A DNA stretch of 64,000 bases. It comes from Candidatus Omnitrophota bacterium (GTDB lineage: Bacteria > Omnitrophota > Gorgyraeia > Pluralincolimonadales > Pluralincolimonadaceae). The notes under the pieces are model-generated. The model searched no databases. It worked only from the letters and a program-made list of their open reading frames with translations, and was not told the DNA's origin. This document shows positions 10,769 through 42,538 of the stretch, piece by piece; the first letter of the stretch is position 1, and every line of letters begins with the position of its first letter. The position numbers and the translations under genes were made by a program. The stretch is taken from positions 107,804 through 171,803 of the forward strand of contig PLNR01000011.1 in NCBI GenBank assembly GCA_003141835.1. The letters are read 5' to 3'.

Positions 10769-11363
10769 TCCTGTCCTTTACCTCAAAATAATCACCAAGA
10801 TCGTCGGTGTATTCTATCCCGAGTTTCTTGAGCATCTTTATCGATCTCGCGTTCTTCTTGGATACGGCGGAGTGCGGCTCGAACTTCAGTTTCCTTATAA
10901 GATCGAGTTGTTTCCCGAGAGCGGCTGTCCCTATGCCCTTGCCCTGCCATTTATCGGATACGAATATGGCGTACGACGCCCTCTTTGGGAATAATAACCT
11001 TATAAGGGCATATCCGACCAGATCGTCGTTATGGAAGATGCCCAGCGGGATATGCGAGACCATTTTAAATATCTTCTCAATAGACCCGGCGTCCGTCTTG
11101 TGCGGCATCACATAGTCCGGGCCGCCGGCCTTTATTGAATATTTGAAAAAGTCGCAGACCTTGGCCTGACCGGAAGCGCCAAGTACCCTGATCACGAACT
11201 CCTCCCCGCCTGCGGAAAAGGCCTCGGCATAACCCTTTGACGGGCCTAACTGCCCGGATAAGAATGACTTTATATACAATTCGTTCACAGACAGGATAAG
11301 CTTATAGAGGAAGCCCTGCTTTTTCTGTATATTCAGCATAAAATTAAGGAGGTTCTTGTTCAT
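10758..11363 (-). CDS. GNAT-family N-acetyltransferase.
   Basis: Q/R-x-x-G-x-G/A-like acetyl-CoA loop (WQGKGIGTAAL). 201 aa. Confidence 0.7.
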   Translation of the reverse strand: MNKNLLNFMLNIQKKQGFLYKLILSVNELYIKSFLSGQLGPSKGYAEAFSAGGEEFVIRVLGASGQAKVCDFFKYSIKAGGPDYVMPHKTDAGSIEKIFKMVSHIPLGIFHNDDLVGYALIRLLFPKRASYAIFVSDKWQGKGIGTAALGKQLDLIRKLKFEPHSAVSKKNARSIKMLKKLGIEYTDDLGDYFEVKDRNGA

Positions 11364-12343
11364 CTTGCCTTAAGCAGCGAGCGCCTGCGCTCCTCTATCG
11401 TAAGCCTTATGCCATCGGTTATCTTAACGCCCGGGCGGTATCCGAGGACCGCCTTCGCTTTCCGCAGGTCCGGCACCCTCCTAGTTATCTCTTCATACGT
11501 GCCGAATATCCTCTTGTGCGGGATGAATTTTATTTTAAGCCGTTTCCCGGTAGCCGCGATCTTATGGATAAGATAAGCGGTATCCGCGACACTCATCTCC
11601 TCGTCATTACCGATATTAAATATTTCGCCCGCCGCTTTCGGGCTTTCCATGGCAAGGACCGTCCCCCGCACCACGTCATCTACATAGGCCATGGACCGGG
11701 TCTGTTTCCCGTCGCCGTGGATCAGTACTTCCTTATCGTTAAGGATGGCGTCTATGAACAGGGGCACATGCCCGCCGCTCCAGCTGAAGCTCGCCCTCGG
11801 GCTGAAACTCCCGAAATAGCGCAGCACGACAACCGGCACGTTAAATTCCTTGAAATAAGCGAAAGCTAATTGTTCCGCATAGATCTTTGACGCGGCATAA
11901 GCCCATCTCTTCGCGGTCGGGGGGCCGATCACCAGGTTCCCGTCTTCCTTGAAAGGCAAATCCCTGGAAACGCCGTAAACGTCGGAAGTCGAAGCGAGTA
12001 TGACCTTTGCCCGCCTTTTCCTGGCGATCTCCAAGACATTGCGCGTTCCCTCGGCGTTGATCCTCAAAGTATTGAAGGCGTCACCCTTCTCATCGATCTT
12101 CTTGGATGCGGCTAAATGCACGATGGTATCGATATCCCCGGCGGCGCGCTCCAGTTTTTTAGGGTCCAGTATGTCGCATTTTACGAATTTAAAATTAATA
12201 TTGTCCAGGTTATGCTTAATATTGGGCATCCTGCCGACCTTAAGATTATCTATACCCGTGACTTTATAACCAGTTCCAAGCAGGGAATCCAAAAGATGGG
12301 ACCCTATCATCCCTGCTACCCCTGTTATCAGGACTTTTTTCAT
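11360..12343 (-). CDS. NAD-dependent sugar-nucleotide epimerase/dehydratase (extended SDR).
   Basis: TGVAGMIGSHL Rossmann motif and YxxxK region. 327 aa. Confidence 0.8.
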   Translation of the reverse strand: MKKVLITGVAGMIGSHLLDSLLGTGYKVTGIDNLKVGRMPNIKHNLDNINFKFVKCDILDPKKLERAAGDIDTIVHLAASKKIDEKGDAFNTLRINAEGTRNVLEIARKRRAKVILASTSDVYGVSRDLPFKEDGNLVIGPPTAKRWAYAASKIYAEQLAFAYFKEFNVPVVVLRYFGSFSPRASFSWSGGHVPLFIDAILNDKEVLIHGDGKQTRSMAYVDDVVRGTVLAMESPKAAGEIFNIGNDEEMSVADTAYLIHKIAATGKRLKIKFIPHKRIFGTYEEITRRVPDLRKAKAVLGYRPGVKITDGIRLTIEERRRSLLKAR

Positions 12344-12349
12344 TATCGC

Positions 12350-13414
12350 TTATCCCTTATGTTTTTCCAGGATATCTGCTATTTTTTTGTGCGCTGTCCC
12401 GTTCCCGTAGACGCTTTCGGGATCGGCATGTTTTCTCGGGCCCTTATAAATATCCCTAACCGCCTTGACCAGTCTTTCCCCGGAAGCGCCGACGAGCGCG
12501 TTCATGCCTTTATCCACGGTTTCAACCCACTCGGTTTCGTTGCGTAAAGTGACGCAGGGGACCCCAAAAATGAAAGCCTCTTTCTGCACTCCCCCGGAAT
12601 CCGTAATTATCACTGGCGCGTCCTTTTCCAGCTTTAGCATCTCGATATAACCGACAGGCCCGATGAGCTTGATATTCCCGGATACCTTGATGCCGTATTT
12701 CTTCAAGCACCCGGCCGTCCTTGGGTGGAGAGGGATCAAGACCTCCTTCCCCAGTTTAGCCAGTCCCGCAAATATTTGCCTCAGGTTCGCGGGATCATCG
12801 GTATTTTCCGCCCTGTGTATCGTGCATAAAATACGGCCTCTCCCGGCCGCGGTAAGCCCTGCCTTATCGATAATGCGCCGGTATTTTTTTATGGAATCAT
12901 ACATGACATCGCCGACCAAGTATACGCCATTCGTCTTACCTTCTTTTTTCAAGTTTCCCACCGCGGTCTTTGTGGGACAGAAGAACAGGCTGGAAACGCC
13001 ATCCGCAACTATCCTGTTGATCTCTTCCGGCATCCTCTTATTATAGCTTCTCAGGCCGGCCTCGATATGCGCGACGGCGATATTCAATTTGGCGGCTGCG
13101 AGCGCCCCGGCTAAAGTGGAATTTGTATCCCCGTATACCAGGACGATATCAGGCTTATCTTTTACCAATATTTTTTCTATTCCCGCAAGCATCCCGGCCG
13201 TCTGCTCCCCGTGCCGGGCCGAACCTACGCCGAGGTTATAATCCGGCCTTGGAATTTTCAGTTCTTTGAAAAATATCCCGGACATGCACTTATCGTAATG
13301 CTGGCCTGTGTGGATGACTACCTCTTTTATATTCCTCGACCTAAGCTCCCGGGAAACCAGGGCCATCTTTACGAATTGGGGCCTTGCCCCTATGACCGTC
13401 GCTATCTTTTTCAT
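12350..13414 (-). CDS. UDP-N-acetylglucosamine 2-epimerase (WecB/WbpI/NeuC family).
   Basis: N-terminus [13 protein letters not shown]…HTGQHYD is diagnostic for the family. 354 aa. Confidence 0.85.
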
Positions 13415-14004
13415 CTATTTTCGCGCACTACTTTTGTTTTATTCTTTTTGTATTTCTTCAGGCAATTTTTGCACACGGCCCGGCCGTTCCTGAAATCCAG
13501 CTTCTCCCCGCATTCGCACATCCATCCGCATAACGCGGCCGGGTTGCCGTAAACAAGCGCGTAGTCCGGGACGTCTTTTGTAACAACCGATCCCGCTCCG
13601 GCGAAGGCATAAGCGCCGATCGTGTTGCCGCATATGATAGTCGCGTTGGCACCTATGCTGGCGCCGCGCTTGACCAGCGTATGCCGGATCTCGTCCATCC
13701 TCGGGACGGCGCTCCTGGGGTTGAATACGTTGGTAAAGACGCAGGAGGGCCCGCAGAATACGTCGTCCTCAAGCGTCACGCCCTTGTAAACCGAAACGTT
13801 GTTCTGGACCTTGACATTATTCCCTATCGACACATCCGGCCCGATCACGACGTTTTGCCCGATCCTGCAATCCTTTCCGACCCTGGAACCTTTCAATATG
13901 TGGGAAAAATGCCATATCTGAGTCCCCGCCCCTACCGTTGCGCCTTTATCCACATAGGAGGATTTATGGGCGCTGAAGACCTTCTTCTTGTTATTCTTTT
14001 CCAA
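13411..14004 (-). CDS. Left-handed beta-helix (hexapeptide) sugar N-acetyltransferase, WbpD/PglD-like, with a C-terminal Cys-rich tail.
   Basis: Repeated [LIV]GxxxxI hexapeptides. Tail motif [23 protein letters not shown]. Confidence 0.78.
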
Positions 14005-15007
14005 TTTTTACCGGCCTCCCGTTTTTATCGAGGGACTTTTGCGCGGCGGTCAGCACCCTCAGGACCTGCAACCCGTTCTTTCCGTCAGTCACGGGCCTCG
14101 TATTGTTCTTTATTGAATCGATGAAATGCTGGCATTCGACTTTTAAGGGCTCGACCATGTCGATCCTGGGTATATGTATATCCCCCTCGCGTATGGTCAG
14201 GAACGCGTCATAACTGCTTTGCCCCTTCTGCCAATCGACGCCTTTATCGTAAACGCGTATCTTTTCCGTCGCTTCCATATCGTCGAATACGACCATTTTC
14301 TTCGAACCCACGACCGTAAATTTCCTTACCTTATGGGGGTCGAGCCAGCTGGCGTGAATGTGCGCCATCATCTTGTTATCGAAATTCAGCGACACGAAGA
14401 CCACATCTTGTACCGAATCGCGGATATAGCATTTGCCCGTGGCCGAGACCTCTTTCGGCATCTTATCAGCCAGGTAGATGGCGAGCGATATGTCATGGGC
14501 TGTCAGGCTCCATAAGGCATTCTCCTCGGCCCTCACCTGCCCCAAGTTCACGCGGGTGGAATACATGTAATTCAGATCCCCCAACGAACCGTCTTCGATG
14601 TATGATTTAAGTTTCTTCGCGGCGGGATGGTAAAGCAGCAAATGGCCTACCATAAGGATCTTTTTGCTCTTCTCCGCCATCCTGACCATCTTTTCCGCGT
14701 CTTCAACGCTCAGCGCCAGGGGTTTTTCTACGAATACGTGTTTCCCGGATGAGAGCGCCTTTAACGTGAGCCGGGCGTGGGTCTCGGAGGGCGTGGTTAT
14801 GACGACCCCGTCTATCTCTTTGTCTTTTATTATGTCGTCGAAATCATGTGTAAACTTTGTGCCGCACCTGAGGCTCTCCGGAATTTTATCCAAAGCCTCC
14901 TTATTTTTGTCGCAGCAAGTCTTTAAGCAGCAATTTTTCAAGCCCGAAAAGACCCTGAAATGATTTTTACCCCAGAAACCCACTCCTGCCTGGCCAAGTA
15001 CGATCAT
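13991..15007 (-). CDS. Gfo/Idh/MocA-family NAD-dependent sugar-nucleotide oxidoreductase (WbpB-like).
   Basis: N-terminal Rossmann motif [12 protein letters not shown] with an EKPLALS-type motif. 338 aa. Confidence 0.8.
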
Positions 15008-16131
15008 TGCGGACCTCCTCTTCGTTCTGTCAGTTCCCGATACAGCCCTTCAAGGCTTTGGACATAATCTTTGGGCAAGTAAGCCGACTCAATCTTTTTT
15101 CTCGACCTGGCGGCGAAATCGCCGCGCAATGGTTTGTCGTTATACAACTCCAAGATCCTGTTTTTCAAAGCTTCAGGGTCTCCGGGCGGGACTAAAAACC
15201 CGTCCTCCCCTTCTCTTACGATTTCGGGTATGCCGCTGATATCCGAGGCCACCACCGGCAGTCCCGTATACATCGCCTCGATCAAAGTACGCGGGAAACC
15301 TTCCTGCAAAGACGGCAGGACAAACACATCCATCGCCTTCATAAGCCCGGGAATATCAAACCTGGCCCCTAAGAAAACTACTTTGTTTTCGATCCCCAGG
15401 GACCGGGCCAGGGCCGTCAATTCCGCCCTGCTCTCCCCTTCGCCTATGATAAGTGTTTTCAGCCGCGGTATCTGCCCATCGAGCCCCTTGACAGCTTCTA
15501 TCAAGAACCTGTGCCCTTTTTTAGGGATAAGCGAACCTACGGTCCCGACTATGAAATCTTCGCCAGAAAACCCGTATTTTTTCCTTAGGGCCTCTTTCGT
15601 CCCGGGAATATTAAATCTCTCCGCATCCACCGCGTTGTAGATAAGATAAAATTTATCTTCAGCTATGCCTTCCTGCTTACGGGTAAAATCCAGGACAGAC
15701 CTGGAGCAGACGATGATCCTGTCGGTGAAACCGGCCAATATCCTGTCCAGGATAACGTGGTAAAATTTCTTCTCCGTATACATGCTTCTTTCCTCGGTCA
15801 CGATAAAGCGCGGATTACAAAACAGCGAGGCGGCCCTCCCGAAGAAATTTGCATAAAAAAGCGACGTATGCAAGATATCCGGCTTCTCCTTCTCCAGGAT
15901 CAAGGCTATCTTTCTTATCAAAGATATGTTAAAGAGCCTCGCCTTGCTATCCAGGCATGTCACCTTGAAGCCCAGCTTTTCGATCTCTTCCGCGATCCGC
16001 CCCTTCTTTTCTATGCTGACTACGCTGCAGTCGAAACGGCTTTTGTCTATGTTCTTTAAAGTCGTCAGCAGGCCCACTTCCGCGCCGCCGTAATCCAAAT
16101 GCACAAAAAGGAAAAGGACTTTTATCTTCAT
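15004..16131 (-). CDS. Glycosyltransferase, GT4 family.
   Basis: GT-B fold with the C-terminal EGFPRTLIEAMYTGLPVVASD motif. 375 aa. Confidence 0.82.
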   Translation of the reverse strand: MKIKVLFLFVHLDYGGAEVGLLTTLKNIDKSRFDCSVVSIEKKGRIAEEIEKLGFKVTCLDSKARLFNISLIRKIALILEKEKPDILHTSLFYANFFGRAASLFCNPRFIVTEERSMYTEKKFYHVILDRILAGFTDRIIVCSRSVLDFTRKQEGIAEDKFYLIYNAVDAERFNIPGTKEALRKKYGFSGEDFIVGTVGSLIPKKGHRFLIEAVKGLDGQIPRLKTLIIGEGESRAELTALARSLGIENKVVFLGARFDIPGLMKAMDVFVLPSLQEGFPRTLIEAMYTGLPVVASDISGIPEIVREGEDGFLVPPGDPEALKNRILELYNDKPLRGDFAARSRKKIESAYLPKDYVQSLEGLYRELTERRGGPQ

Positions 16132-18017: not shown

Positions 18018-18898
18018 TTCGCCGAAACGCCGGAGTAGTCATTCAATAAGTAATCCCTCAGCGCGTCCTTCCAGTTACGCATACCGTCAAGCCCGATCTC
18101 TTTCAGGCGAGAATTCTCCATGGCTTCTGACCGCCCCCTGGGAGCCGGCAACGGAAACACGGAAGAGCTTACCGGAACTATCTCGACTTTGTTCAGCCCC
18201 AGGATATTCTTGATTTCGAGCGCTATATCATATCGCGAAACCATCCCATGATTGGCCATGTGGTATAGCCCGGGGCTGCCTCTCTCTATCAACTTTCCGG
18301 TGCATGCCAGGAGATCCTTGGCATAAGTCAGGCTTCCGAATTTATCATTTACGGCCTTGATGGAATTGGATCCGGCCATCATGCGCGCTATCTTCCCGAC
18401 AAACTTAACATCCTTGCCGCCGCCACCCACCATCCATCCTGCTCGTATTATAAAATAATCTTTGAGCCGCGAAGCAATTATACCTTCGGCCTCAAGTTTA
18501 GTTTTACCATAAAAATTCAACGGCCCTGTCTTGTCCGCCTCTATATACGGAAGCGGTTTCGAACCGTCAAAAACCGCGGCGGAACTTAAAAATACAAGCT
18601 TCACCCCGTTATTCTTACAGGCTGACACGACGTTTTCCGTGCCCGTGACATTGACCTTACGAGCCCAATCCCTGTCAGTTTCACATCTATCAACATCCGT
18701 AGCGGCAGCGAGGTGCAGCACCAGGCCAGGAGAAGTTTTTTCTACCGCGATCATTACAGAATCGCGATCGCATATGTTTAAATCTGCCAAGTCGGTAAGT
18801 ATGCATTCGGCATCATTAAATACCTGTTTCACATAACTGCCGACCATGCCGGAACCGCCGGTAACCAAAATACGGGTTATGCTATTAATCTTCGGCAT
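18014..18898 (-). CDS. RmlD-like NAD(P)-dependent 4-ketosugar reductase (dTDP-4-dehydrorhamnose reductase family). Second copy in the window.
   Basis: VTGGSGMVGSY and HLAAATDVDRCETD resemble the RmlD substrate-binding region. 294 aa. Confidence 0.68.
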   Translation of the reverse strand: MPKINSITRILVTGGSGMVGSYVKQVFNDAECILTDLADLNICDRDSVMIAVEKTSPGLVLHLAAATDVDRCETDRDWARKVNVTGTENVVSACKNNGVKLVFLSSAAVFDGSKPLPYIEADKTGPLNFYGKTKLEAEGIIASRLKDYFIIRAGWMVGGGGKDVKFVGKIARMMAGSNSIKAVNDKFGSLTYAKDLLACTGKLIERGSPGLYHMANHGMVSRYDIALEIKNILGLNKVEIVPVSSSVFPLPAPRGRSEAMENSRLKEIGLDGMRNWKDALRDYLLNDYSGVSAK

Positions 18899-20370
18899 GA
18901 CGATATTCCTTTTTTTATCAGGCCCAAAGGATCGTTGAACATTTTGGCAGCAAGTTTCCTGGAAAATAATACAGGGTGTTTTTTATAAAATTCCATCTGG
19001 AGGTAGCTGTAGCCCTCTTCGAATATCTTTCTGACATCATCACCGCTCCATTTATCCGTGGAAATGGAACAGCTTGTGATATATAAGTTATCTAAAAATG
19101 ATTTTTCGTCGATATAGCCTTCCTTAAGGGACCTCGCGTAAAGCTCCGATCCGGGATAAGGCGTGGCCACGGAGACAAAAGGCTTGTAGATGCCGATTTT
19201 TTTTGCGAAATTGTAGCTGTCCCACATCTCGCCGACCGTCTCTCCGGGCATGCCTATTATAAGAAAAATGTTCGCATCAAGGCCTATGCTTTTCGCGTGC
19301 TTAATAAGGACTTCGACCTTTTTTAAATTAACGGGTTTTTTTATCACATCCCTAAGGACCCTTTCACTGCCCGACTCTACTGCAATATTAAGCTTGTAGC
19401 AGCCGGCCTCTTTCATTTTGTCGATAAGACCCTCGGTAAGCGCGAAAGCGGCGACGCCGTTAGGAGTATCCCATTTGAAATCCAGTTTTTCTTTTATCAT
19501 GAGATCGAATATCTCTTCGGCGCGGTTGACATCGAGGGTTACATTATCGTCTTCAAATAAAAGTTCCTCTATTTGATATTTTTCTTTAAGGTCCCTCATT
19601 TCTTCTATAACATTCATAGGGGATCTTTTCCTGAACGTCTTTCCCCACACATGATGGGCAGTGCAAAAACTGCAGCCCACCGGGCATCCTCGCGAGGTTA
19701 TAATGGGGGAAAATCTGCGGCACATCCTTTTGCCGTGCGACGCCTCCAGGCCAAAGTATTTCTCCATGCTTAATAAATGCCTTGCAGGGAAAGGGATGCT
19801 ATCGAGATCTTTAATAAACCGCTGTTTGGGAATAATTTTGATAATATCTTTATCCCTATATCCTATGCCGTCAAGGCTTGAGAGATCCGCCCTTCCTTCT
19901 ATAGCCCCTATTAAAGCTATCAGGCTCTCTTCTCCTTCGCCAAGCACAACGTAATCCACATTTTTGTCCGCCAATACATTCTCCGGCATCACCGTGGCAT
20001 GCGCCCCGCCAGCAATTACGATAATATCTTTACTGACATTTTTTGCAATCCTGTATATATCGTGAGCATTCCTTCTCTGCCTTGTAAAGAGATTATTTAC
20101 TCCTACGATATCAGGAGCGAAATTTCTTATAATACTTTCAATTTCGTCAATCCCCAGCCCGATCTTTATAATATTCTCCGCCACATCGGTCCTTGAGTCC
20201 CAGCCTTCTATCAGGCAATCGACGATTTTTACCTGAATACCGTTTTTTTCTAAAACACTTCCCAGATACGCAAGCCCAAGCGGAGGGAGCGGATTGATAT
20301 CTAATAAGTCCTTAAAGGTAAACGCGGATGGTGTAAAAAGAAGTATTTTTTTTATTTTTCTTTTAAGCAT
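18877..20370 (-). CDS. B12-binding (class B) radical SAM enzyme.
   Basis: N-terminal cobalamin-binding Rossmann region (PLPPLGLAYLGSVL…VKIVD) plus the CxxxCxxC motif TSRGCPVGCSFC. 497 aa. Confidence 0.85.
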   Translation of the reverse strand: MLKRKIKKILLFTPSAFTFKDLLDINPLPPLGLAYLGSVLEKNGIQVKIVDCLIEGWDSRTDVAENIIKIGLGIDEIESIIRNFAPDIVGVNNLFTRQRRNAHDIYRIAKNVSKDIIVIAGGAHATVMPENVLADKNVDYVVLGEGEESLIALIGAIEGRADLSSLDGIGYRDKDIIKIIPKQRFIKDLDSIPFPARHLLSMEKYFGLEASHGKRMCRRFSPIITSRGCPVGCSFCTAHHVWGKTFRKRSPMNVIEEMRDLKEKYQIEELLFEDDNVTLDVNRAEEIFDLMIKEKLDFKWDTPNGVAAFALTEGLIDKMKEAGCYKLNIAVESGSERVLRDVIKKPVNLKKVEVLIKHAKSIGLDANIFLIIGMPGETVGEMWDSYNFAKKIGIYKPFVSVATPYPGSELYARSLKEGYIDEKSFLDNLYITSCSISTDKWSGDDVRKIFEEGYSYLQMEFYKKHPVLFSRKLAAKMFNDPLGLIKKGISSCRRLIA

Positions 20371-23261: not shown

Positions 23262-24746
23262 TCATAACGCGCCTGAACGCAAAATTTTTAACCAAAAATC
23301 CGCGTAGATTATCGGTGTTATGACGAGTTCTTTGAGCAAAAAATCCAGGTAGGCGAGTTTTCTTTTGGACCTGAGCACTGCCATCCAATACTGTCGATCG
23401 GCTTTAAACATATTCATTTCGATAGGCGCATATATGCCATATTTAATCCACCAGCTATTGAGCAAAGTATTGAAATTGATATTGTGCTTCGACATCCTGT
23501 ACTCTTCCGGAGGATTAAGGCGGTCCAGCCTCCAATACTGCTCCTTGGGGATAGGAGCTTTTAAGTATTTATCATAAAAAGCGGTGCCGGGATAAGGCTG
23601 TGTAACTCCCACGGAAATATAGGTCGGCTTTATTCGCGCCAACAGCTTATAGGACATCTCCAGGTCATCTTCCGTTTCTCCGGGCAGATTAAGCAGCATA
23701 TTAGCAAAAGTCCTTATGTTGTATTTCCTGCATAAGGAAAAGGCGTTGACTATTTCGGGTATGCTTATCTTTTTGTTGATCGTTTCCAGTAATTTCGGTG
23801 AACCCGTCTCGACGCCGAAATCGAGCTGTATGCATCCCGCTTCTTTCATCATCCTTACGATCTTTTCGTTCTTTAGGCAGTTTACCCTTGTATCGGCGGC
23901 CCAGAGCATCCTTAACCCGCTTTTGCGGTAAGCATCGCAAAACTCTATTATGTCCGCCTCGGTCATCCCGAAAGTATCATCAAGGATATAAAAAAAATCG
24001 AAATGGTATTTATCCTGCAATATGCGCAATTCTTCCATTACGCGGGCCATCGGCCGCTTCCTGGCCAGGGGCGGGCCGCCAGGGACTTTATCCATGGCTT
24101 TCCATACCGCGTTCGAAGCGCAAAAACCGCAATTATAAGGGCATCCCCGCGATGTTTGTATTACGGCGGTAGACACTATCAACCGCCTTATGATAAGTTT
24201 TGTCGGTTTCGCGTTCCATTCCATATCTATCATGTGATAGGCAGGCATTCCGCATTCACTGAGATCCATGAACTCCCTGTTGCCGTTTATTTTAACTGCG
24301 CCGTTATCCAGGTACGCTATGCCCTTTATGCGGCTATTATCCTTATTCTCGTCATATTCTTTAAGGACCTGCTCCAGGGTAAGCTCCCCCTCCCCGCGGA
24401 CGACCAGGTCGAAAGGGCTGCCATCATATAAAAAATCCTGCGGAGAGACCGAAGGGTGCGCGTTCCCTACGATAATTTTTGAACCGGTCTCCTCTTTTAT
24501 CTTTTTCGCCAGCTCGACTATCGCGTTGTAGTCGGTCACAAATGCTGCCAGCCCAACATAGCGCGGCTTCTTTTCCTTTATTTCGCGCATTATGATGTTT
24601 ACATTCGCCTCGATACTTTTCTCATGCGGGTCGGCTATCCCGACCTTGAAACCCTTCTTTTCCAGGTATCCGGCCAGGTAGAGGTAATAGAACGGCATAT
24701 ACCTGCTTCTTGCGTTTGAGGGCGAAACTACGAATAGTATATCCAT
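23262..24746 (-). CDS. B12-binding (class B) radical SAM enzyme.
   Basis: N-terminal B12-binding-like domain with SRGCPYNCGFC. 494 aa. Confidence 0.85.
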   Translation of the reverse strand: MDILFVVSPSNARSRYMPFYYLYLAGYLEKKGFKVGIADPHEKSIEANVNIIMREIKEKKPRYVGLAAFVTDYNAIVELAKKIKEETGSKIIVGNAHPSVSPQDFLYDGSPFDLVVRGEGELTLEQVLKEYDENKDNSRIKGIAYLDNGAVKINGNREFMDLSECGMPAYHMIDMEWNAKPTKLIIRRLIVSTAVIQTSRGCPYNCGFCASNAVWKAMDKVPGGPPLARKRPMARVMEELRILQDKYHFDFFYILDDTFGMTEADIIEFCDAYRKSGLRMLWAADTRVNCLKNEKIVRMMKEAGCIQLDFGVETGSPKLLETINKKISIPEIVNAFSLCRKYNIRTFANMLLNLPGETEDDLEMSYKLLARIKPTYISVGVTQPYPGTAFYDKYLKAPIPKEQYWRLDRLNPPEEYRMSKHNINFNTLLNSWWIKYGIYAPIEMNMFKADRQYWMAVLRSKRKLAYLDFLLKELVITPIIYADFWLKILRSGAL

Positions 24747-24749
24747 GCC

Positions 24750-26285
24750 TCAGGCCTTGGCCAATTTGGCGAACAGGCCGTTGACATAGTCCCTGAAATA
24801 ACCGGAAAAAACATAATACAAGCATAAGGCGCCGAATGACGCCAGCCCTCCGGCGCATATCACGATCAACAGGTCCATCTTATTTTTATCGGCCGGCATG
24901 AACCTGCCTGCATAAGCCAGTACGCCCACTAAAAATAATGTGGGGATCACGGCAGGGCTGATGACCTTTTTAATGAGATCTACGGTTTTATATTTTAAAA
25001 AATCATTCATCAGGATAAAATACAGAACAGCGGAAACCGTGAACGCGATGAACTTAAACACTGCAAAAGCAAGTATGCCCATTGAAGAATAGGTCGCTAA
25101 TATCCCGCCCCAATAAATAATGACCGCGATAACGGCGATCGCGCCCATAGCTTTGACCCTTACCTGCGTCGTGACCAGGATGCCGGCTGGCTGGACGAAA
25201 AAATTATACACCCAGCTCATAACCAGGAATTGCGCTACCAGTATCGACGGTACATAATTAGCGCCTACCCAGCAAAGGATCACCGGCCTCATCAGAACCA
25301 CTATGCTGACTACGGGGAATACCACTAAAGGAAGAGTCAGGACGATAACGCTGTAGATGATCCTCCGCAGGCTTGCCATGTCATTTTGCCCCATAAAATG
25401 GTTAAAACGGGCCAGGAAGGGGCCGTAAATAACCCCGAGTATACCCCTGAAAAATCCCATGACGGTCAGCCCCACCGCATAGAGCGCGGCCATCTCCGCT
25501 CCGGATAATTTACCGATCGCAAACAGGTCCAATTCATAATAAAGTATGCAGACCAACGTAGTGAAAAAAGTGCCGAACGCGAGCCTTTTAGTCCGGTTAT
25601 AGATCTCTCCTGAAAACCTGAAAGACCTCGCCAGAAGGCCGAAATCGTAATGGTATTTGGCCTTTATGATGCCCAGGAAAATGATATTGGCTATTAATCC
25701 CGTGGACTGGTAAAACAGGAAATATCCCACGATATCATATTTGCTGCCGTTAAAAAAATAGAACACCGAACACACCCTCGCCAGGTTGACCAGGATGGAA
25801 AGCCTCTGGTAGATATAATCTTCCAGCCTTATGCCGAAGACTATCTGGCATAACTTTTGCAGGATGACGGTCGGCGAAAAGAGCGAAAGAATCAGTAATA
25901 ACCTTGAAGCGACGGCTATCTCCTTTGCGTCATTGAGATTTTTTATCAACAGATGGGGATCGAATGCGAAGACCAGGATGACCATCGAGAACAAGAGGAC
26001 GAAAATAAACAGGACAAAACTCACAAAACCGAGTATCCTTATCTCTTCCTTCAGGTCGTTAATGGCGAATTGCTCGCTTACGTATTTAAACGCGGCGCCC
26101 AAAAACCCGATATCCGCGTATGTCAGGAAAAAGGTGACTGAGACGCATATAGAATAGATGCCGTAGATCGCCGGGGCGCTGGTAAGTTTCGGTATCACTA
26201 TGAAAAGCGAAAGGAACCCGAGCAGGATCGAAATGCCTTGCCAGAGGTATATCTTTACATAATTTTTCGTATACGATTCTTGCAT
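24750..26285 (-). CDS. wzx: Oligosaccharide/polysaccharide flippase (Wzx, MOP superfamily).
   Basis: 511 aa with about 12-14 TM helices and a polysaccharide-biosynthesis-protein topology. Sits inside a glycosyltransferase cluster. Confidence 0.75.
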   Translation of the reverse strand: MQESYTKNYVKIYLWQGISILLGFLSLFIVIPKLTSAPAIYGIYSICVSVTFFLTYADIGFLGAAFKYVSEQFAINDLKEEIRILGFVSFVLFIFVLLFSMVILVFAFDPHLLIKNLNDAKEIAVASRLLLILSLFSPTVILQKLCQIVFGIRLEDYIYQRLSILVNLARVCSVFYFFNGSKYDIVGYFLFYQSTGLIANIIFLGIIKAKYHYDFGLLARSFRFSGEIYNRTKRLAFGTFFTTLVCILYYELDLFAIGKLSGAEMAALYAVGLTVMGFFRGILGVIYGPFLARFNHFMGQNDMASLRRIIYSVIVLTLPLVVFPVVSIVVLMRPVILCWVGANYVPSILVAQFLVMSWVYNFFVQPAGILVTTQVRVKAMGAIAVIAVIIYWGGILATYSSMGILAFAVFKFIAFTVSAVLYFILMNDFLKYKTVDLIKKVISPAVIPTLFLVGVLAYAGRFMPADKNKMDLLIVICAGGLASFGALCLYYVFSGYFRDYVNGLFAKLAKA

Positions 26286-26289
26286 ATAT

Positions 26290-28071
26290 TTATCTATTAA
26301 CCAGGTTATCGATCAGGCCCAGTATCTTCCCTTCCGTTCCTTCTTTATACATATAATGCTTATAAAAGGTATCGTCCCGTTTTTTCTCCAATTCGCCCTT
26401 CATGAAAAGATCGATCTTTGCGATGGCCTCAGCGGTATCTTCGCAATAATGGACGCGCCTTTTCAGTTCTTCGAGAGCCTTCGCCTCATACGGATTCAGC
26501 GGGTCGTCCATTAGGAATATCTCGGCATCAAGAGGTAAAACATCAAATAACGGCTGCGACGGGACCTCTATTAAAACGGCCTTGGGCGAGTATTCCAGGA
26601 GAAAATCGGTCAGGGATACGTTATCGACGACCTTTAAATTATTGAGCCTCTCAAAGACCGACCAGGCGGAGCAGTTCAGGTAACCGGAATCTATAAACGG
26701 TTTTATATAGATATCCCGCGATTTTAACGAATTGAGGTGTTCCAGAAGGGTTATCTGCCTTTCAACCACCATATCCGGGGAGATCCTGTCCATCCCGGAC
26801 TCAAACATGGAGATGCTCACCGTTATCGGGAACAGGAAGTCTATCTTCCTGGAAGCCTTTTCGTATTTTACTATTTTTGTTTTTCCTAACGGCAGGATCT
26901 CCGCTTTTATCTTTATCGAGGGATATACCCTCTCCAGGTCTTCCCTGGTAAATCCCCAGCTGATAAAATGATCGCACCTGTTAAAATCTGTTTCCACGTT
27001 CCACGGAGAAAGCGCTTCGCCGTAAAGGCAGCCGTGCTGCGAACCCACGACCTTTATGCCTTTTGACGATAAATATTCGAAGATCATGGCCCTTGACCTC
27101 CATGACGGAGAGACCCCCCATATCCCCAGGGAAACAGGATGTTTCATGTTGATCATCTCGATCGAACGAACGGCATTCAAATACCGGTTCCCGTTAGCCG
27201 CGAAGTCCTCCTCAATATTTTCCAAAAGGAGTTTCACGAACGGGTCGGTGTCGTCCTTGATAAAACCCTTGCTCCTGAGGTCCAAATTTACGTCATAAGT
27301 TAAGCGTTGCGTTCCGAATCCCAGAAATCCTTCTTCCCTGAAGTCATAATATAAAATATTATACTTATTTAAGCTGTTAACCAGGAATTCCAACTCATAT
27401 AAAGGCTCGCTTATCAATACGGTCTTCCTGTCATCGCGGAATCTCTTGAATCCATATTTATGGACGGCAACGGCTATTCCCTTTAATATAAACCTGAAAT
27501 TGCGGCCTTTCAGCCTCCTGAGCGCGTTCATTATCCTTTTCATCCCGCGCCCTGGTCCCGGGATATCCTTATCCGCCGGGATCTCTATGATATCGGTCCG
27601 GATGCCCGCAAAAAACAAAGGTACCAGGTCGCTTACGGAGGTACTTACATTTAAGAATTTATTAAACCTGTAATCATAAAACAATATCTTTTCCGGCTTA
27701 TGGACATCCGCCGCCCTTTTGACGCAATCCACGAACGTGGCGTATCCCAGCAGCTGCAGTCCGCAATAGAAAAAATATAACGGGGTAAAATAATCCAATT
27801 TGAGGTTAAACTTCTTATTCAATGACGGCGAAAGGCCGGAATCTAAATTTTTTAACAGGCCGCCTACCGTTTTTGCGCACTTCTCCCTCATGCTGATCAA
27901 TTCTTCGGTAGGCAGGAATCCGCTCAAACATTTACAATCCAGGCCGTGCTTTTCTTTAAGGTAAACATCTACGCTGGAATGCGTGGAAAAAAGCACATTG
28001 CCTTCGAAAAACTTATTTTCAACGCAGTGCCTCGCGTCGGATACGCTATGGAGAATGACGGCCGTTCTCAT
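26290..28071 (-). CDS. Large hypothetical protein (593 aa) with no recognisable family. Candidate novel glycosyltransferase or nonulosonate transferase.
   Basis: Uninterrupted ORF tightly packed between wzx and a radical SAM gene. No diagnostic motif found by eye. Confidence 0.5.
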   Translation of the reverse strand: MRTAVILHSVSDARHCVENKFFEGNVLFSTHSSVDVYLKEKHGLDCKCLSGFLPTEELISMREKCAKTVGGLLKNLDSGLSPSLNKKFNLKLDYFTPLYFFYCGLQLLGYATFVDCVKRAADVHKPEKILFYDYRFNKFLNVSTSVSDLVPLFFAGIRTDIIEIPADKDIPGPGRGMKRIMNALRRLKGRNFRFILKGIAVAVHKYGFKRFRDDRKTVLISEPLYELEFLVNSLNKYNILYYDFREEGFLGFGTQRLTYDVNLDLRSKGFIKDDTDPFVKLLLENIEEDFAANGNRYLNAVRSIEMINMKHPVSLGIWGVSPSWRSRAMIFEYLSSKGIKVVGSQHGCLYGEALSPWNVETDFNRCDHFISWGFTREDLERVYPSIKIKAEILPLGKTKIVKYEKASRKIDFLFPITVSISMFESGMDRISPDMVVERQITLLEHLNSLKSRDIYIKPFIDSGYLNCSAWSVFERLNNLKVVDNVSLTDFLLEYSPKAVLIEVPSQPLFDVLPLDAEIFLMDDPLNPYEAKALEELKRRVHYCEDTAEAIAKIDLFMKGELEKKRDDTFYKHYMYKEGTEGKILGLIDNLVNR

Positions 28072-29474
28072 GATGACTTAGCCGGAGAAGACCCGCGTGA
28101 TAAACCATCTTTGGGTTTTTGATATGTGACGGTCTTGAAAACGGAATCCAGCTTCAATCCCAAATGCACCGCTAATCTTCTCAGTTTCTCTTCAACGATC
28201 GAGACAAATTCATTATCCGGCATCCCGGTAAGGTTGACATGGAAATCCTGCCTGTCCCCTATCCTCTCCAGGTACCCGATCTCATCGGTTATGCGGCCGT
28301 TTTTCCTCGCCCAATCATATATCGGGGTGCCCGGCAAAGGCAGCAGAAAACCGACGCTTGGATACATCCGGCATTCCTCGCAAACCTCGATGGTGCGCTG
28401 GATAGTTTCAGGCGTTTCCTGCGGATAGCCGAAAATTACGCTTGTCAGGGGGGTGACGCCTCCATCCCACAGCGCCCTCGACTGCTCTATGATCTGCGGG
28501 ACCGAGATCTTTTTATTCATCGCGGACAGAATCCCGGGGTCGGCGTTCTCCAAAGAAAAAGCGATGTTCTCGCAACCGGCCTCTCTCATTCTCTTTATCA
28601 GGTCCAGGTCTTTCTTCTTGAAGAGATCTCCTCTCGAGGTGGCTTCCCATTTTATCTTAAAATCCAGGCTTTCTATTATCCCGACCATCTGCTCTACGCC
28701 TTTTATGTTAGGGAAGGTCAACTCGTCCCAAAAAGAAACGTAATTGCAATTGTACTTGCCGTGGAGCCTGTTAAGCTCCCCGGTGAAAGCCCCTTCGGAA
28801 TACCTCCTGTATTTCTCCCCTTTAAAAACATGGTAACAAAAAGTGCAGTTGAACGGGCATCCCCTCGCGTAATTCAACGGATACGACAGGGCTTTCTCCG
28901 AGGAAAAATTATTTACGTTTATATACCCGTATTCGTCATATTTGGCCAGTTCGAACAGGTCCCAATCGGGAAATCCGAAAACATCCAATGACGGCGCGAC
29001 AGGCCGTTTTTGCGTATAGACTATCCTGTCTCCATCCTTAAATACGATGCCTTCTACATCCGACAACGGGCTCTTCGCTTCTATCGCCTTCATGAGCTCT
29101 ACGACCGTTATGTCGCTTTCGCCCATGACAGCTATGTCAACCTTTGTATTTTTTAAGAGAAGTTCGGGGATAGATGTAGCGACGGAATTTCCCGCCATTA
29201 TAACGGCCTTGGGGTTAGTCTTTTTCACGATATCGGCAATCTGCCTAACCAGCTTGAACCCGGTCACTATGCATCCGAGGCCGTAAACATCGTAAGGCCT
29301 GCCGGCCAGGATCTTTTCCAAGTCGGAAATAGTGAGGTTGTTAATATCCATGTCTATAAGGTCGAATTCAAAGCCTGCTTTTTTTATTGCGGTCATTATA
29401 TAACCGAGGCCGACAGGAAGCTGCCTTCTTTTTGAACCTGGCCTTAGGGATGGATTAATAAAAACGATCTTCAT
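28068..29474 (-). CDS. B12-binding (class B) radical SAM enzyme.
   Basis: N-terminal LPVGLGYIMTAIKKAGFEFDLID (B12-binding-like) plus ARGCPFNCTFC. 468 aa. Confidence 0.85.
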   Translation of the reverse strand: MKIVFINPSLRPGSKRRQLPVGLGYIMTAIKKAGFEFDLIDMDINNLTISDLEKILAGRPYDVYGLGCIVTGFKLVRQIADIVKKTNPKAVIMAGNSVATSIPELLLKNTKVDIAVMGESDITVVELMKAIEAKSPLSDVEGIVFKDGDRIVYTQKRPVAPSLDVFGFPDWDLFELAKYDEYGYINVNNFSSEKALSYPLNYARGCPFNCTFCYHVFKGEKYRRYSEGAFTGELNRLHGKYNCNYVSFWDELTFPNIKGVEQMVGIIESLDFKIKWEATSRGDLFKKKDLDLIKRMREAGCENIAFSLENADPGILSAMNKKISVPQIIEQSRALWDGGVTPLTSVIFGYPQETPETIQRTIEVCEECRMYPSVGFLLPLPGTPIYDWARKNGRITDEIGYLERIGDRQDFHVNLTGMPDNEFVSIVEEKLRRLAVHLGLKLDSVFKTVTYQKPKDGLSRGSSPAKSS

Positions 29475-29481
29475 TCCCGCA

Positions 29482-30243
29482 TCAACTCCACCTGTGAAAA
29501 ATTATCATTGTCTCTTTTACTTCGTTGAAGCCGTTCTTAATATAGGTGTTTTGGGCGGAGACGTTCTTTGCCTGTGTCCCTACCGTGAGTTCCGTTGCCT
29601 GCAATTTTTTTGCGGCGTAGCGGAGCAAGGCCGAGCCGATCCCTTTTCCCTGAAATCTCTTTAAGACGGCTACGAAGAAAAGCCTGGAGCGCTTTCCGTC
29701 CCGGCTGACGTTGGCCAAGACCGCACCGGCTGTTTCATTGCGGAACTTGGCTATGAAGATGCGCCCGGCCTTCGAAGGCCTGAAGCATTTTATGTAATTT
29801 ATCCAGAGCAGGTCCGCTTTTTCTTTGGGGATACGGGTATCCGAATGGAACCTAGAATACCTGAAAACGCCCCCAAGCTCCTCACAGGGAAGGCCTTCGT
29901 TCTTTTTCAATTCAAGCACCTTTACGCCGGGCGCCAAGGACGGATCTTTTGCCTTCCCGCCGGCATATTTGAACGTGATCTCGGTATCTATGTAGGCGAA
30001 GCCCATAGTCTGTAAAAATGCTATCGATCCATTATCCGAATCTGCGGGGATCTTGACCGTCACGAAACTATTTTTGAGCTTACCGGCTGCCATGGCCCTT
30101 ATTTTAGCCGAAGGCACAAGTATGGAATTATCCGCGTCCAGGAGATAACAATCCCTCCCGAAGAAAACGGTATCCCATTCCAGGAACTTGAAATGATATA
30201 CGGCGCCGCCGGCTTTTAGCGTGATATCTTTAGAGGATGCCAT
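29482..30243 (-). CDS. GNAT-family acetyltransferase, candidate PseH-like N-acetyltransferase.
   Basis: FQGKGIGSALL acetyl-CoA loop. Lies immediately downstream of the PseG-like and PseI-like genes. 253 aa. Confidence 0.6.
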   Translation of the reverse strand: MASSKDITLKAGGAVYHFKFLEWDTVFFGRDCYLLDADNSILVPSAKIRAMAAGKLKNSFVTVKIPADSDNGSIAFLQTMGFAYIDTEITFKYAGGKAKDPSLAPGVKVLELKKNEGLPCEELGGVFRYSRFHSDTRIPKEKADLLWINYIKCFRPSKAGRIFIAKFRNETAGAVLANVSRDGKRSRLFFVAVLKRFQGKGIGSALLRYAAKKLQATELTVGTQAKNVSAQNTYIKNGFNEVKETMIIFHRWS

Positions 30244-31231
30244 CGATATAGTCCTTTATTTCCCTTGTCTTGAATACGGCGTTTGGCAGGCGGGTTAACG
30301 GGTCCCGTATACCTTCCAGCAACTTTTTTTCGTCGAAAGACCTGAACCCGAGGTATTTCGCCCAGCCCATTTTATCGAAGTACTCGCACCTGCCTATCTG
30401 GTGTTCGTGAATAGCGATGAGGACCGACGGCGTCCTTGTCGCGACAAGCTCGAAACTGGTAAGCCCGCCCGCGGAAACGGCTATATCGCAATTCATGAAC
30501 TCATCGAACATATTCGTTATATCCTGCTTTATCCTGTATTTAACGCCTGAATCCTTTAAGCTTCCGGCCAGCCCTTCCATGTGCCGGTATCCCCCGCCCA
30601 CGACCACATACAGCTCCAGACCTGTTTTTCCCCTGATAAGGGCATCTACCACTTTTTGGGTGAAATTATATTCATCGGCTCCGCCCATCGATACCAGCAA
30701 TACCTCCGGCTTGCTTTTATAAGACCTGTTACGGATCCTCGTGAAATCAAAATCAAGCGGCAGGACCGCGTACTGCGGCCCAAGAAGGAATTTGGTGCCG
30801 GGATATTTCTTTTGGTCAAACAGCTTATCCGTACCTACATCCCAGTTCACCACCAGTGACATGCCGTCAGGGATAATGCCGTCGAAATTGATGCAGGCCT
30901 TTACCGCGCGATTTGTGACCCCCTTGTATTCCGTCAAGGGCCTTTCCGTTATTTCAAAGAAGGCCGCGTCGATCCCCCGGGACTCGATGTAACCATTTAT
31001 CTCTTCCGTTTCCTTCCCGATCGAATGCGGCCCTATGATAGCTAGATAATTATTTATCTTGTTCCTCTTTACTATTTCGACGGACTCATCATAATCCCTG
31101 ATGATAAAGTGAGATTCCCAGCCGTCATTCTCGAAATAGCGCGACAGGTGGATAAGCGAAACGAGGTCGCCGGTGCCTATCGACTGCTTCGCGTCGGCCC
31201 TGAAAAGCACTTTTTTTGTCACAGTATGCAA
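30230..31231 (-). CDS. pseG: PseG-like UDP-sugar hydrolase (UDP-2,4-diacetamido-2,4,6-trideoxy-beta-L-altropyranose hydrolase family, MurG-like fold).
   Basis: KVLFRADAKQSIGTG near the N-terminus, LVSMGGAD, and C-terminal DIAVSAGGLTSFEL match the conserved PseG blocks. 333 aa. Confidence 0.68.
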   Translation of the reverse strand: MHTVTKKVLFRADAKQSIGTGDLVSLIHLSRYFENDGWESHFIIRDYDESVEIVKRNKINNYLAIIGPHSIGKETEEINGYIESRGIDAAFFEITERPLTEYKGVTNRAVKACINFDGIIPDGMSLVVNWDVGTDKLFDQKKYPGTKFLLGPQYAVLPLDFDFTRIRNRSYKSKPEVLLVSMGGADEYNFTQKVVDALIRGKTGLELYVVVGGGYRHMEGLAGSLKDSGVKYRIKQDITNMFDEFMNCDIAVSAGGLTSFELVATRTPSVLIAIHEHQIGRCEYFDKMGWAKYLGFRSFDEKKLLEGIRDPLTRLPNAVFKTREIKDYIDGIL

Positions 31232-32289
31232 TCCCAGGTTATCGGGTCCTCGAAAAAGATATCTTTCTTTGCGGTGACCTTATTAGCCTTGAAAAGATCC
31301 AGGTATTTAGGCTCTAACCCGCGTTTTTTCTTCCCCGGCCTTAAGATCTCTATATCGGACGGCCCTATCCTCCGGCCTGCTTTTATGTCCTTGTTGGCGA
31401 AAAGCGCCATGTAAGCGAAATCCCTGAGGTATTTTTCCTTCTCGCCGGTGGTCTTCGCGCTGCTGCCGTAGATGAGCTTATCTATCCTGCATTTTCCTGC
31501 TTTAAGGCCGGATCCGGCCTTCCGTATCGCGGCGACCATCTCTTTCAGTTCATCCGGTTCCAGCGCAAAAAAATGGTCCGGCCCTTTCATCCTTTTATCA
31601 AGGGTTATGTGCTTTTCTATCACCCTGGCACCGAGATATACCGCCTGGACCGGGGCCGCGCAGGCCTCTTTGGTATGGTCAGAGTATCCTATCTCGAGGT
31701 CCGGAAAAGCCGACCCAAGGGTCCTGATAACCCCCAAATTACATTCCCTGAGGTCGGTGGGGTAAGCTATGGAGCAATGCAGCAGGGTGAGTTTATCGTG
31801 ATAACGCTTTACGGTGCTTACCGCATCCTCTACCTCCCCGAGCGTCGCCCCGCCGGTCGAGAGGAAGATCCTGAACCGCTTTTTTGCGCAATATTCAATG
31901 AACGGTATGTTGGTAACGGCATAAGAAGGGATCTTTATCGACCTTAACCCTCCGGCGATCAGCATATCCAGGCATGATCTGTCTGAAGCCGAACACAGGA
32001 AATCGATCTTCTTTTTCTTGCAATAGGCCGTCAACTTGCCTATCCAGGCGCGCGGCATCTCAAAACGGGCCGAGGCCTCATATATATCGTAGGAATACTT
32101 CTTGTCGTTATCGGTCCAGTCGAGCCTCCCTGCGCTTTTCGGATAGAGATATTTTGCCTTGAACAACTGGAACTTTGCCGCGTCGCATCCGGCCTCAGCA
32201 GCCGAATCGATAAGCCTGAAACAATTTTCGAGCAGGCCATTATGGTTTATCCCGATCTCGGCTATTATATATACTTTATTTTTCATCAA
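31219..32289 (-). CDS. pseI: Nonulosonic acid synthase (NeuB/PseI/LegI family), most likely pseudaminic acid synthase.
   Basis: YIIAEIGINHNGLLE…AKFQ TIM-barrel N-terminus and a C-terminal SAF domain. 356 aa. Confidence 0.82.
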   Translation of the reverse strand: MMKNKVYIIAEIGINHNGLLENCFRLIDSAAEAGCDAAKFQLFKAKYLYPKSAGRLDWTDNDKKYSYDIYEASARFEMPRAWIGKLTAYCKKKKIDFLCSASDRSCLDMLIAGGLRSIKIPSYAVTNIPFIEYCAKKRFRIFLSTGGATLGEVEDAVSTVKRYHDKLTLLHCSIAYPTDLRECNLGVIRTLGSAFPDLEIGYSDHTKEACAAPVQAVYLGARVIEKHITLDKRMKGPDHFFALEPDELKEMVAAIRKAGSGLKAGKCRIDKLIYGSSAKTTGEKEKYLRDFAYMALFANKDIKAGRRIGPSDIEILRPGKKKRGLEPKYLDLFKANKVTAKKDIFFEDPITWDCIL

Positions 32290-34171: not shown

Positions 34172-34516
34172 CTATCGTTCTTTCCACTCGTCAAGCCAGC
34201 AGATTATCCTGTTATCCTGTCCCGTCTTCAGGTATTTTCTGAACTCCTTCATCTTTTCCTTTTCGACGGCATGGACATATAACTGGTGCCTCTCATTGAC
34301 GACGAGGGCAACCTTGAAACCCTCCTTTTTGAGCCTGCTGTTCAGGGAAGGGCCCAGGTAGAAACCCCAATCTTTGGCGGCAAAATCGCATTCCTTCCCG
34401 CTTTTCGTGACGAAGGATACCATCTCGCCGTCGTTGAGATATATCTTCCCGAGATCCTTTACTTTATGGCCCTTCACCTCAAAGACCCTCGGCGTTCTCT
34501 TGAATTTGGTTTTCAT
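34172..34516 (-). CDS. Small hypothetical protein (~114 aa).
   Basis: The ORF is wedged with zero spacing between an AsnB paralogue and the PseA-like gene. The internal ATG at 34516 gives an ATGA overlap. No recognisable motif. Confidence 0.38.
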   Translation of the reverse strand: MKTKFKRTPRVFEVKGHKVKDLGKIYLNDGEMVSFVTKSGKECDFAAKDWGFYLGPSLNSRLKKEGFKVALVVNERHQLYVHAVEKEKMKEFRKYLKTGQDNRIICWLDEWKER

Positions 34517-42535: not shown

Positions 42536-42538
42536 ATT

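Follow-up and report, generated by a model that had tools for sequence, protein, structure and literature searches.

A set of five genes in the 64,000-nucleotide stretch of Candidatus Omnitrophota DNA analysed here (the window, contig PLNR01000011.1) is likely to encode a Wbp/Wlb-type nucleotide-sugar branch of a surface-glycan cluster of roughly 50 kb. Three of the genes, for a UDP-sugar 2-epimerase, an N-acetyltransferase of the left-handed β-helix (LbH) type and a Gfo/Idh/MocA (GFO) oxidoreductase, form a coupled trio, while a DegT-family aminotransferase and a UDP-HexNAc 6-dehydrogenase are encoded at a distance from it. In the route that we infer, as to substrates, order of steps and final sugar, the dehydrogenase would oxidise UDP-GlcNAc at C6 to UDP-GlcNAcA, the GFO enzyme would then oxidise C3, the DegT protein, a pyridoxal phosphate (PLP) enzyme, would transaminate C3, the acetyltransferase, a WlbB-type LbH enzyme, would N-acetylate the C3 amine with acetyl-CoA as donor, and the WbpI-like epimerase would invert C2 to give UDP-ManNAc3NAcA or a close derivative. 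Transfer of the product would probably fall to an adjacent GT4 glycosyltransferase, and a UXS-like short-chain dehydrogenase/reductase (SDR) might possibly modify it. This Wbp-like reading had been put forward in a preliminary description of the sequence, and is supported by the matches of the epimerase and acetyltransferase and by the context of related GFO loci.

The five open reading frames (ORFs) lie where that description had placed them, all on the minus strand, and the families proposed for them were borne out by Pfam and NCBIfam; they are long and their family matches very strong, and chance is therefore excluded. The trio comprises the epimerase (12350-13414, 354 aa; Pfam Epimerase_2, E 2.9e-104, and TIGR00236), the acetyltransferase (13411-14004, 197 aa, with a TTG start; Hexapep/LbH) and the GFO oxidoreductase (13991-15007, 338 aa; Pfam GFO_IDH_MocA N- and C-terminal domains), the last being the putative C3 dehydrogenase. 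That these genes are adjacent and translationally coupled, as had been claimed, can be read directly from their overlaps: the stop codon of the acetyltransferase gene and the start of the epimerase gene share an ATGA, and the acetyltransferase TTG lies 14 nt inside the 3' end of the GFO gene, with a GGGAGG 10 nt upstream of it. The start of the GFO gene in turn overlaps the GT4 gene (15004-16131, minus strand; Pfam Glycos_transf_1 and Glyco_transf_4) by 4 nt. The putative WbpE equivalent (DegT, 44166-45287, 373 aa; Pfam DegT, E 3.8e-127) and the putative WbpA equivalent (dehydrogenase, 46238-47548, 436 aa; three UDPG_MGDP_dh domains and TIGR03026) are upstream of the trio in the sense of transcription, again as described, at a distance of about 29 kb and past a helix-turn-helix (HTH)/NusG-like gene pair at 42026-43150. 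All of these genes belong to a glycan supercluster, entirely on the minus strand, that spans 128 to about 51967 of the window. Gene context in other genomes was obtained by a scan with the GFO family alignment, one genome per species, which gave 80 loci (45-74% identity, many phyla; designated by L numbers), and neighbours were called in these by local tblastn with the window proteins. The locus counts given below are minima, many loci being cut by contig ends, and are not fully independent, about 30 of the 80 being Omnitrophota-like.

The epimerase scored 322.5 bits against TIGR00236, the wecB model of non-hydrolysing epimerases (cut-off 210), and only 58.8 bits against the NeuC/LegG model TIGR03568 (cut-off 235.9). 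Its best solved match was the UDP-GlcNAc3NAcA 2-epimerase of Thermus thermophilus HB27 (8sxv, E 1.2e-108), with the M. jannaschii UDP-GlcNAc epimerase ranking behind (7e-93). The activity of the Thermus enzyme on UDP-GlcNAc3NAcA has been proven biochemically, and the adaptation of its site to a 3-acetamido uronic substrate resides in three residues: Trp307, which stands for the Arg that contacts the 3-OH in UDP-GlcNAc epimerases, Tyr96, which stands for His/Gln, and Ala18, which stands for Leu/Met and is said to give space for the flipped Tyr (PMC10622841). Alignment with the Thermus enzyme showed that the window epimerase keeps the specificity Trp and Tyr (W296 and Y94, equivalent to Trp307 and Tyr96), as well as the catalytic and allosteric residues D96, E118, E130, H200 and R201 (Thermus Asp98, Glu120, Glu132, His208 and Arg209). 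The corresponding E-W and Y/F signatures were near-universal among 25 GFO-adjacent epimerases from other genomes. The sequence thus makes a strong case that the window enzyme is WbpI-like; its exact substrate is less certain.

For the acetyltransferase, the best solved match was Bordetella petrii WlbB (3mqg, E 4.3e-65), followed at lower rank by FdtD (3.5e-37), Helicobacter dTDP-sugar acetyltransferases and QdtC (1.7e-14), and the protein scored 88.3 bits against the NeuD/PglB/VioB model, whose cut-off is 160.8. An AlphaFold2 model built with 78 homologues had a mean pLDDT of 92.9, with 94-97 in the tail, and the top Foldseek match to it was again WlbB (3mqh; TM 0.89/0.91, root-mean-square deviation 1.9 Å, 188 columns), the structural alignment giving 53% identity. 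The C-terminal hairpins of WlbB were present in the model, and since the superposition extends over the 188 columns the tail is homologous to that of WlbB and does not represent an added domain. Homologues carry the JGI label UDP-2-acetamido-3-amino-2,3-dideoxy-glucuronate N-acetyltransferase. By fold and similarity, then, the protein is a member of the WlbB/WbpD family, closer to WlbB than to PglD, QdtC or LpxA, and its genomic coupling is of a piece with this: the overlap with the GFO gene, 37 GFO-adjacent orthologues, and GFO-LbH and LbH-DegT fusions, which are taken up below.

The Cys-rich tail of this enzyme (CGWMCECG…CKNC) is present as it had been described. Its codons (13462-13518, minus strand) specify Cys163-x-Cys165 and Cys178-x-x-Cys181, and these four residues, as distinct from C159, which is not conserved, were invariant in 120 of the 120 homologues listed. 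All 37 WlbB-type GFO neighbours carried them too, in genomes labelled Omnitrophota, Clostridia, Elusimicrobia, Gloeobacterales, Patescibacteria and others, so that the conservation in orthologues that was to be checked is established. The family comprises 968 members at E <= 1e-30 in a library of 50%-identity representatives, and 127 alignable tails were compared, of which 126 came from the 150 top-scoring representatives and one from WlbB. Four Cys were found in 86 tails, a WlbB-like S-H-C-S/T pattern in 25 and no Cys in nine, and intermediates were very few. In the AlphaFold2 model strands flank both Cys pairs. No Pfam model covered the tail, and a scan of the tail alone gave only a non-significant match to DUF4428. 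The all-or-none Cys pattern and the strands around both pairs fit a metal site, and the tail most likely forms a small Cys4 metal-binding, zinc-ribbon-like pair of knuckles. Most of the family shares Cys4, which the Bordetella/Pseudomonas type has lost; the tail of that type (S-H-C-T in WlbB) is the degenerate form. The earlier remark that the tail is not typical of WbpD thus holds with respect to the proteobacterial type, for which WlbB was compared, whereas within the family as a whole it is the majority state.

In contrast to these two enzymes, the GFO oxidoreductase cannot be filed as a member of the WbpB/WlbA group. The protein has the expected N-terminal (PF01408, E 8.2e-26) and C-terminal domains, and all aligned members of its family share its EKP motif (E94-K95-P96). 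The best NCBIfam match was the archaeal UDP-GlcNAc 3-dehydrogenase model NF040723, at 200.9 bits and below the cut-off of 450, and the best solved matches were uncharacterised GFO proteins (3c1a, 4e-28, and 3ezy); a family-profile search gave the same ranking picture as the single sequence. The GFO protein, belonging to a distinct clade, would not return WbpB/WlbA as reciprocal best hits, the comparison that the preliminary description had proposed. In WbpB/WlbA, the UDP-GlcNAcA 3-dehydrogenases (EC 1.1.1.335), tightly bound NAD is recycled in a 2-oxoglutarate-dependent reaction that is coupled to the aminotransferase. That the window protein would work like them, from a clade of its own, rests on conserved context and fusions and not on closest homology.

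Of the 80 loci, 57 had an LbH gene within 3 kb downstream of the GFO gene (WlbB-type in 37 and, in 20, another type about 250 aa long), and the DegT most like the window 44166-45287 protein lay within 3.5 kb in 53. Within 10 kb, a WbpI-like epimerase was found in 26 loci and a dehydrogenase 43-86% identical to the 46238-47548 protein in 25, and in 10 loci, all from other phyla, a dehydrogenase (49-54% identity) was placed directly upstream of GFO. All five genes occurred together in 10/80. The closest full analogue is the Omnitrophota locus L027, in which dehydrogenase, SDR, UXS, DegT, GFO and LbH genes are contiguous and are followed by a GT4-epimerase-SDR module. Among the 150 best acetyltransferase-family representatives we also found 40 GFO-LbH fusions, three LbH-DegT fusions and one GFO-LbH-DegT fusion of 892 aa (fusion protein ids including P0262, P0267, P0270, P0272, P0333 and P0345). 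The GFO domains of the fusions were 22-43% identical to the window protein, and more than one GFO lineage has thus been fused to the acetyltransferase. Fusion of steps 2 and 4, with step 3 usually separate, implies a multi-enzyme complex. The second LbH type (20 loci, e.g. L063, L070, L079, L081 and L085) was 27-39% identical to the window acetyltransferase, lacked the Cys4 tail and ended in ...VP..QLL.NQ; its hosts were labelled Actinomycetes/Coriobacteriia, Dehalococcoidia, Cloacimonadota and Bacteroidetes, and their clusters were otherwise canonical, with dehydrogenase, GFO, LbH, DegT and epimerase genes.

The DegT protein (PF01041, 424.9 bits) had only C3 aminotransferases as its top PDB matches (7b0d, 7n63, DesV, QdtB and WbpE), and shared 42% identity with WbpE and 52% with 7b0d. 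In neighbour-joining trees, which are rough and carry no support values, it nested in a clade of GFO/LbH-adjacent DegTs that includes P. aeruginosa WbpE, with DesV, QdtB and 7n63 branching just outside; an extra DegT of L003 and the second DegT of the window fell far outside this clade. Genes of the 44166 type were found directly upstream of GFO in L014, L016, L017, L019, L021, L022, L026 and L027, and L003, whose GFO protein is 73% identical to that of the window, keeps a dehydrogenase-SDR-DegT-UXS-HTH-NusG block at 69-84% identity. The extra DegT of L003 is encoded directly upstream of its GFO gene, an arrangement that by itself would speak against the preliminary reading, whereas the eight loci just named favour it. 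The dehydrogenase scored 446.7 bits against TIGR03026 (cut-off 189.8) and was below all substrate-specific equivalog cut-offs (WecC 256.7/459, TviB 252.4/592); its WbpA-like role is based on synteny with the GFO clade in the 25 loci mentioned above. The two proteins are probable functional equivalents of WbpE and WbpA, respectively.

The window encodes just one further DegT (39247-40392), which was considered as partner of the trio and rejected, since it is PseC/ArnB-like, of C4 type, and outside the GFO-adjacent clade. The extra DegT of some close relatives was likewise rejected as the true WbpE, having no orthologue in the window and grouping with C4-type enzymes. This extra gene is directly upstream of the GFO-LbH pair in L006-L009, L011 and L020 (L006 and L020 have it at about 4.3-5.4 kb, L007-L009 and L011 at about 8.8-10.0 kb). 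Its product is about 34-36% identical to the window DegTs, and it occurs in genomes that also retain the 44166-type DegT in their precursor block. In the window, that block (UGDH, cupin, RmlA/B/D, HexNAc dehydrogenase, TviC-like SDR, DegT and UXS-like SDR genes) is divided from the long assembly operon by the NusG-like (UpxY-type) gene and a winged-helix regulator (42026-43150, minus strand), a pair 76-77% identical in L003. The ORF for the UXS-like SDR of the block (43240-44304, minus strand) has a 46-aa Arg-rich N-terminal extension and overlaps the DegT gene by 139 nt; its true start is probably near 44169, from where the 309-aa orthologue of L003 aligns.

Two further genes next to the trio may act on its product. 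The GT4, coupled to the GFO gene, is a candidate transferase for the product; in L025 and L027 the gene just upstream of the epimerase is its orthologue (48-59% identity). Directly downstream of the epimerase gene is an extended, UXS-like SDR (11360-12343, minus strand, 327 aa), whose best PDB matches were human UDP-glucuronate decarboxylase (1.5e-48) and the B. cereus UDP-GlcA 4-epimerase (6zl6, 7.5e-40) and whose orthologues, 62-71% identical, follow the epimerase gene in L018, L021, L022, L025 and L027. By its relatives and this recurrence, it might act on C4 of the uronic-acid product, and the final sugar may thus be a C4-modified derivative.

Several results weigh against a Wbp-type pathway of this form. 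The window epimerase has Met (M17) at the position of Thermus Ala18, the third of the specificity residues. This site was found to be variable in the 25 GFO-linked epimerases (A, S, M, L, I or E), and Met also occurs in the two closest homologues, of L025 and L027, where the Met-type epimerase sits in a GT4-epimerase-SDR module. For the GFO protein, GnnA (7bvj, 1.5e-21) outranks WlbA of B. pertussis (3q2k, 9e-14) and the C. violaceum enzyme (3q2i, 5.5e-12), and the P. aeruginosa/T. thermophilus structures 3oa2 and 3oa0 were not among its top 60 PDB matches. GnnA and the archaeal UDP-GlcNAc 3-dehydrogenase (MMP0352) both act on UDP-GlcNAc, a non-oxidised sugar. WbpE was only fifth among the distinct solved matches of the DegT (298 bits, 1e-88), behind dTDP-sugar 3-aminotransferases, so that a reciprocal-best-hit comparison with WbpE fails for this protein, and the trees that place it with WbpE are the rough ones mentioned above. 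The DegT and dehydrogenase genes, moreover, share their separate precursor block with genes for a TviC-like 4-epimerase and the Rml enzymes and could serve other sugars, and the close relatives L006-L009 keep this block and have in addition a different DegT directly upstream of GFO. The extra DegT of L003 and L006-L009 was without an orthologue in the window, that of L006-L009 being about 36% identical to both window DegTs.

The main rival explanation is a non-oxidised or re-ordered route, in which the GFO enzyme would oxidise UDP-GlcNAc itself on the way to UDP-GlcNAc3NAc/UDP-ManNAc3NAc, C6 oxidation being absent or later and the distant dehydrogenase mainly supplying the adjacent TviC-like 4-epimerase. 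Such a route would account for the ranking of the archaeal model and of GnnA above WlbA, for a Met where UDP-GlcNAc epimerases carry Leu/Met (PMC10622841), and for a dehydrogenase 29 kb away beside a TviC-like SDR. The NF040723 score, however, is far under its cut-off, dehydrogenases 49-59% identical to that of the window are directly upstream of the GFO clade in the 10 loci from other phyla, the acetyltransferase is closest to WlbB, a protein crystallised with a uronic substrate, and Tyr94 and Trp296 are those of the uronic-acid epimerase; we regard this route as unlikely. A further possibility is that the window represents a widespread form of the diacetamido-uronic acid pathway that awaits characterisation. 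A third GFO clade would act in a physical complex with the WlbB-type acetyltransferase, to which it is often fused and whose Cys4 tail would bind metal for assembly or stability, and the Met17 epimerase and the SDR would lead to an undescribed diacetamido sugar, perhaps the C4 epimer or, after decarboxylation, a 2,3-diacetamido pentose. This we put forward tentatively, as a speculation more likely wrong than right.

It could also be envisaged that the 44166-45287 DegT makes a dTDP-3-amino-3,6-dideoxyhexose with RmlA, RmlB and the cupin, the aminotransferase of the trio being outside the window or missing. QdtB, DesV and 7n63, which are among its best-named solved matches, are all dTDP-sugar 3-aminotransferases, the same block encodes RmlA, RmlB and a cupin of 148 aa that resembles FdtA weakly (25.1 bits), and in L006-L009 the GFO gene adjoins another DegT, for which the window lacks an orthologue. 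Against this, the cupin (50196-50642) fits RmlC better (56.3 bits), and RmlB and RmlD both score above their equivalog cut-offs; with an RmlC-like cupin and an RmlD above cut-off, the precursor block appears to make dTDP-rhamnose, and its reading as a dTDP-Qui3NAc/Fuc3NAc block is weakened by the same cupin and bona fide RmlD. The DegT itself groups with GFO-adjacent DegTs and WbpE and not with QdtB, DesV or 7n63, its closest relatives are directly upstream of GFO in the eight loci named above, and in L006-L009 the extra DegT clusters with C4-type enzymes, all of which makes the dTDP-sugar role improbable. Still less credence can be given to the epimerase being a NeuC/LegG-type hydrolysing enzyme of a nonulosonic-acid branch, with its adjacency to the GFO and LbH genes accidental. 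The window does contain a NeuB (31219-32289), a CMP-sugar-type cytidylyltransferase and a PseC-like DegT, and the 12350-13414 gene is its sole Epimerase_2 gene. The NeuC and WecB scores given above nevertheless separate the enzyme clearly from NeuC, no window protein matched the NeuC-like epimerase of L003 at E 1e-5, the GFO clade is accompanied in 26/80 loci by WbpI-like epimerases that share the E-W signature, and the ATGA overlap couples the gene to the acetyltransferase. The pairing of a LegH/PglD acetyltransferase with a NeuC-type epimerase, which the preliminary description had named as the scenario that would overturn its reading, is ruled out by the HMM (hidden Markov model) scores and PDB ranks, the best match of the acetyltransferase being WlbB and not PglD.

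Compared with known systems, the Wbp/Wlb-type pathway favoured here has the same five enzyme classes as P. aeruginosa WbpA-B-E-D-I and Bordetella WlbA-D, and would work like these and like the T. thermophilus version. The epimerase and acetyltransferase are members of the respective families, the latter sharing the WlbB fold, and the DegT, in the rough clade of WbpE, and the dehydrogenase are probable equivalents, whereas the C3 dehydrogenase would be an analogue from another GFO clade; the five window genes are also, unlike those of Wbp/Wlb, split over two blocks 29 kb apart. Among relatives with a named function, NF040723 (Methanococcus maripaludis MMP0352) and GnnA (7BVJ) score best with the GFO protein; both are GFO-family C3 dehydrogenases of UDP-HexNAc sugars. 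GnnA has GnnB as its partner, in lipid A synthesis, and we know of no acetyltransferase or epimerase partner for it. Psychrobacter cryohalolentis Pcryo_0615 (8E62), like the window enzyme, is an LbH N-acetyltransferase, and is annotated for diacetamido-2,3-dideoxy sugar synthesis, but is only distantly related to the window acetyltransferase (E 1.2e-11). This distance and the second LbH type in 20 loci show that different LbH lineages carry out the acetylation step.

Assignment to this pathway is not in itself novel, as JGI already names acetyltransferase homologues by the pathway. In contrast, the prevalence of the Cys4 tail and the recurrent coupling or fusion of this GFO clade with the acetyltransferase appear, as far as we have checked, to be undescribed. 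For an uncultured lineage of the Omnitrophota, the analysis assigns a defined rare-sugar branch to its large glycan cluster. In most environmental phyla the pathway seems to be built with the different C3 dehydrogenase clade and the Cys4-tailed acetyltransferase; given this prevalence, the model enzymes of Pseudomonas and Bordetella are the atypical ones. No long-standing question is opened by this, and two targets for structural enzymology emerge, the metal content of the tail and the substrate preference of the GFO clade.

Elsewhere in the cluster, a nonulosonic-acid-like branch is encoded on the minus strand in 31219-32289, 35632-36261 and 39247-41926. It includes NeuB, an LbH O-acetyltransferase-like protein, a PseC/ArnB-like C4 aminotransferase, a radical-SAM/SPASM protein and a CTP_transf_3 cytidylyltransferase; the second DegT (39247-40392) belongs with NeuB and the cytidylyltransferase, and no NeuC-like epimerase was found in the window. 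Three AsnB-type glutamine amidotransferases (128-2029, 32276-34171 and 36254-37930, minus strand) may act in amidation of the carboxylates of uronic or nonulosonic acids. Three B12-binding radical SAM enzymes (18877-20370, 23262-24746 and 28068-29474, minus strand), with at least six S-adenosylmethionine (SAM) methyltransferases around them, suggest heavy C- or O-methylation of the glycan. Five ORFs of 511, 593, 333, 372 and 755 aa, in 24750-28071, 30230-31231, 34513-35631 and 51967-54234 (minus strand), had no Pfam match at E 1e-5; four of them are inside the cluster and one is at its upstream edge. Just upstream of the cluster, 55291-58220 (minus strand) encodes a ROK-family kinase and a pair of neighbouring GGDEF diguanylate cyclases, of which one has a GAF domain.

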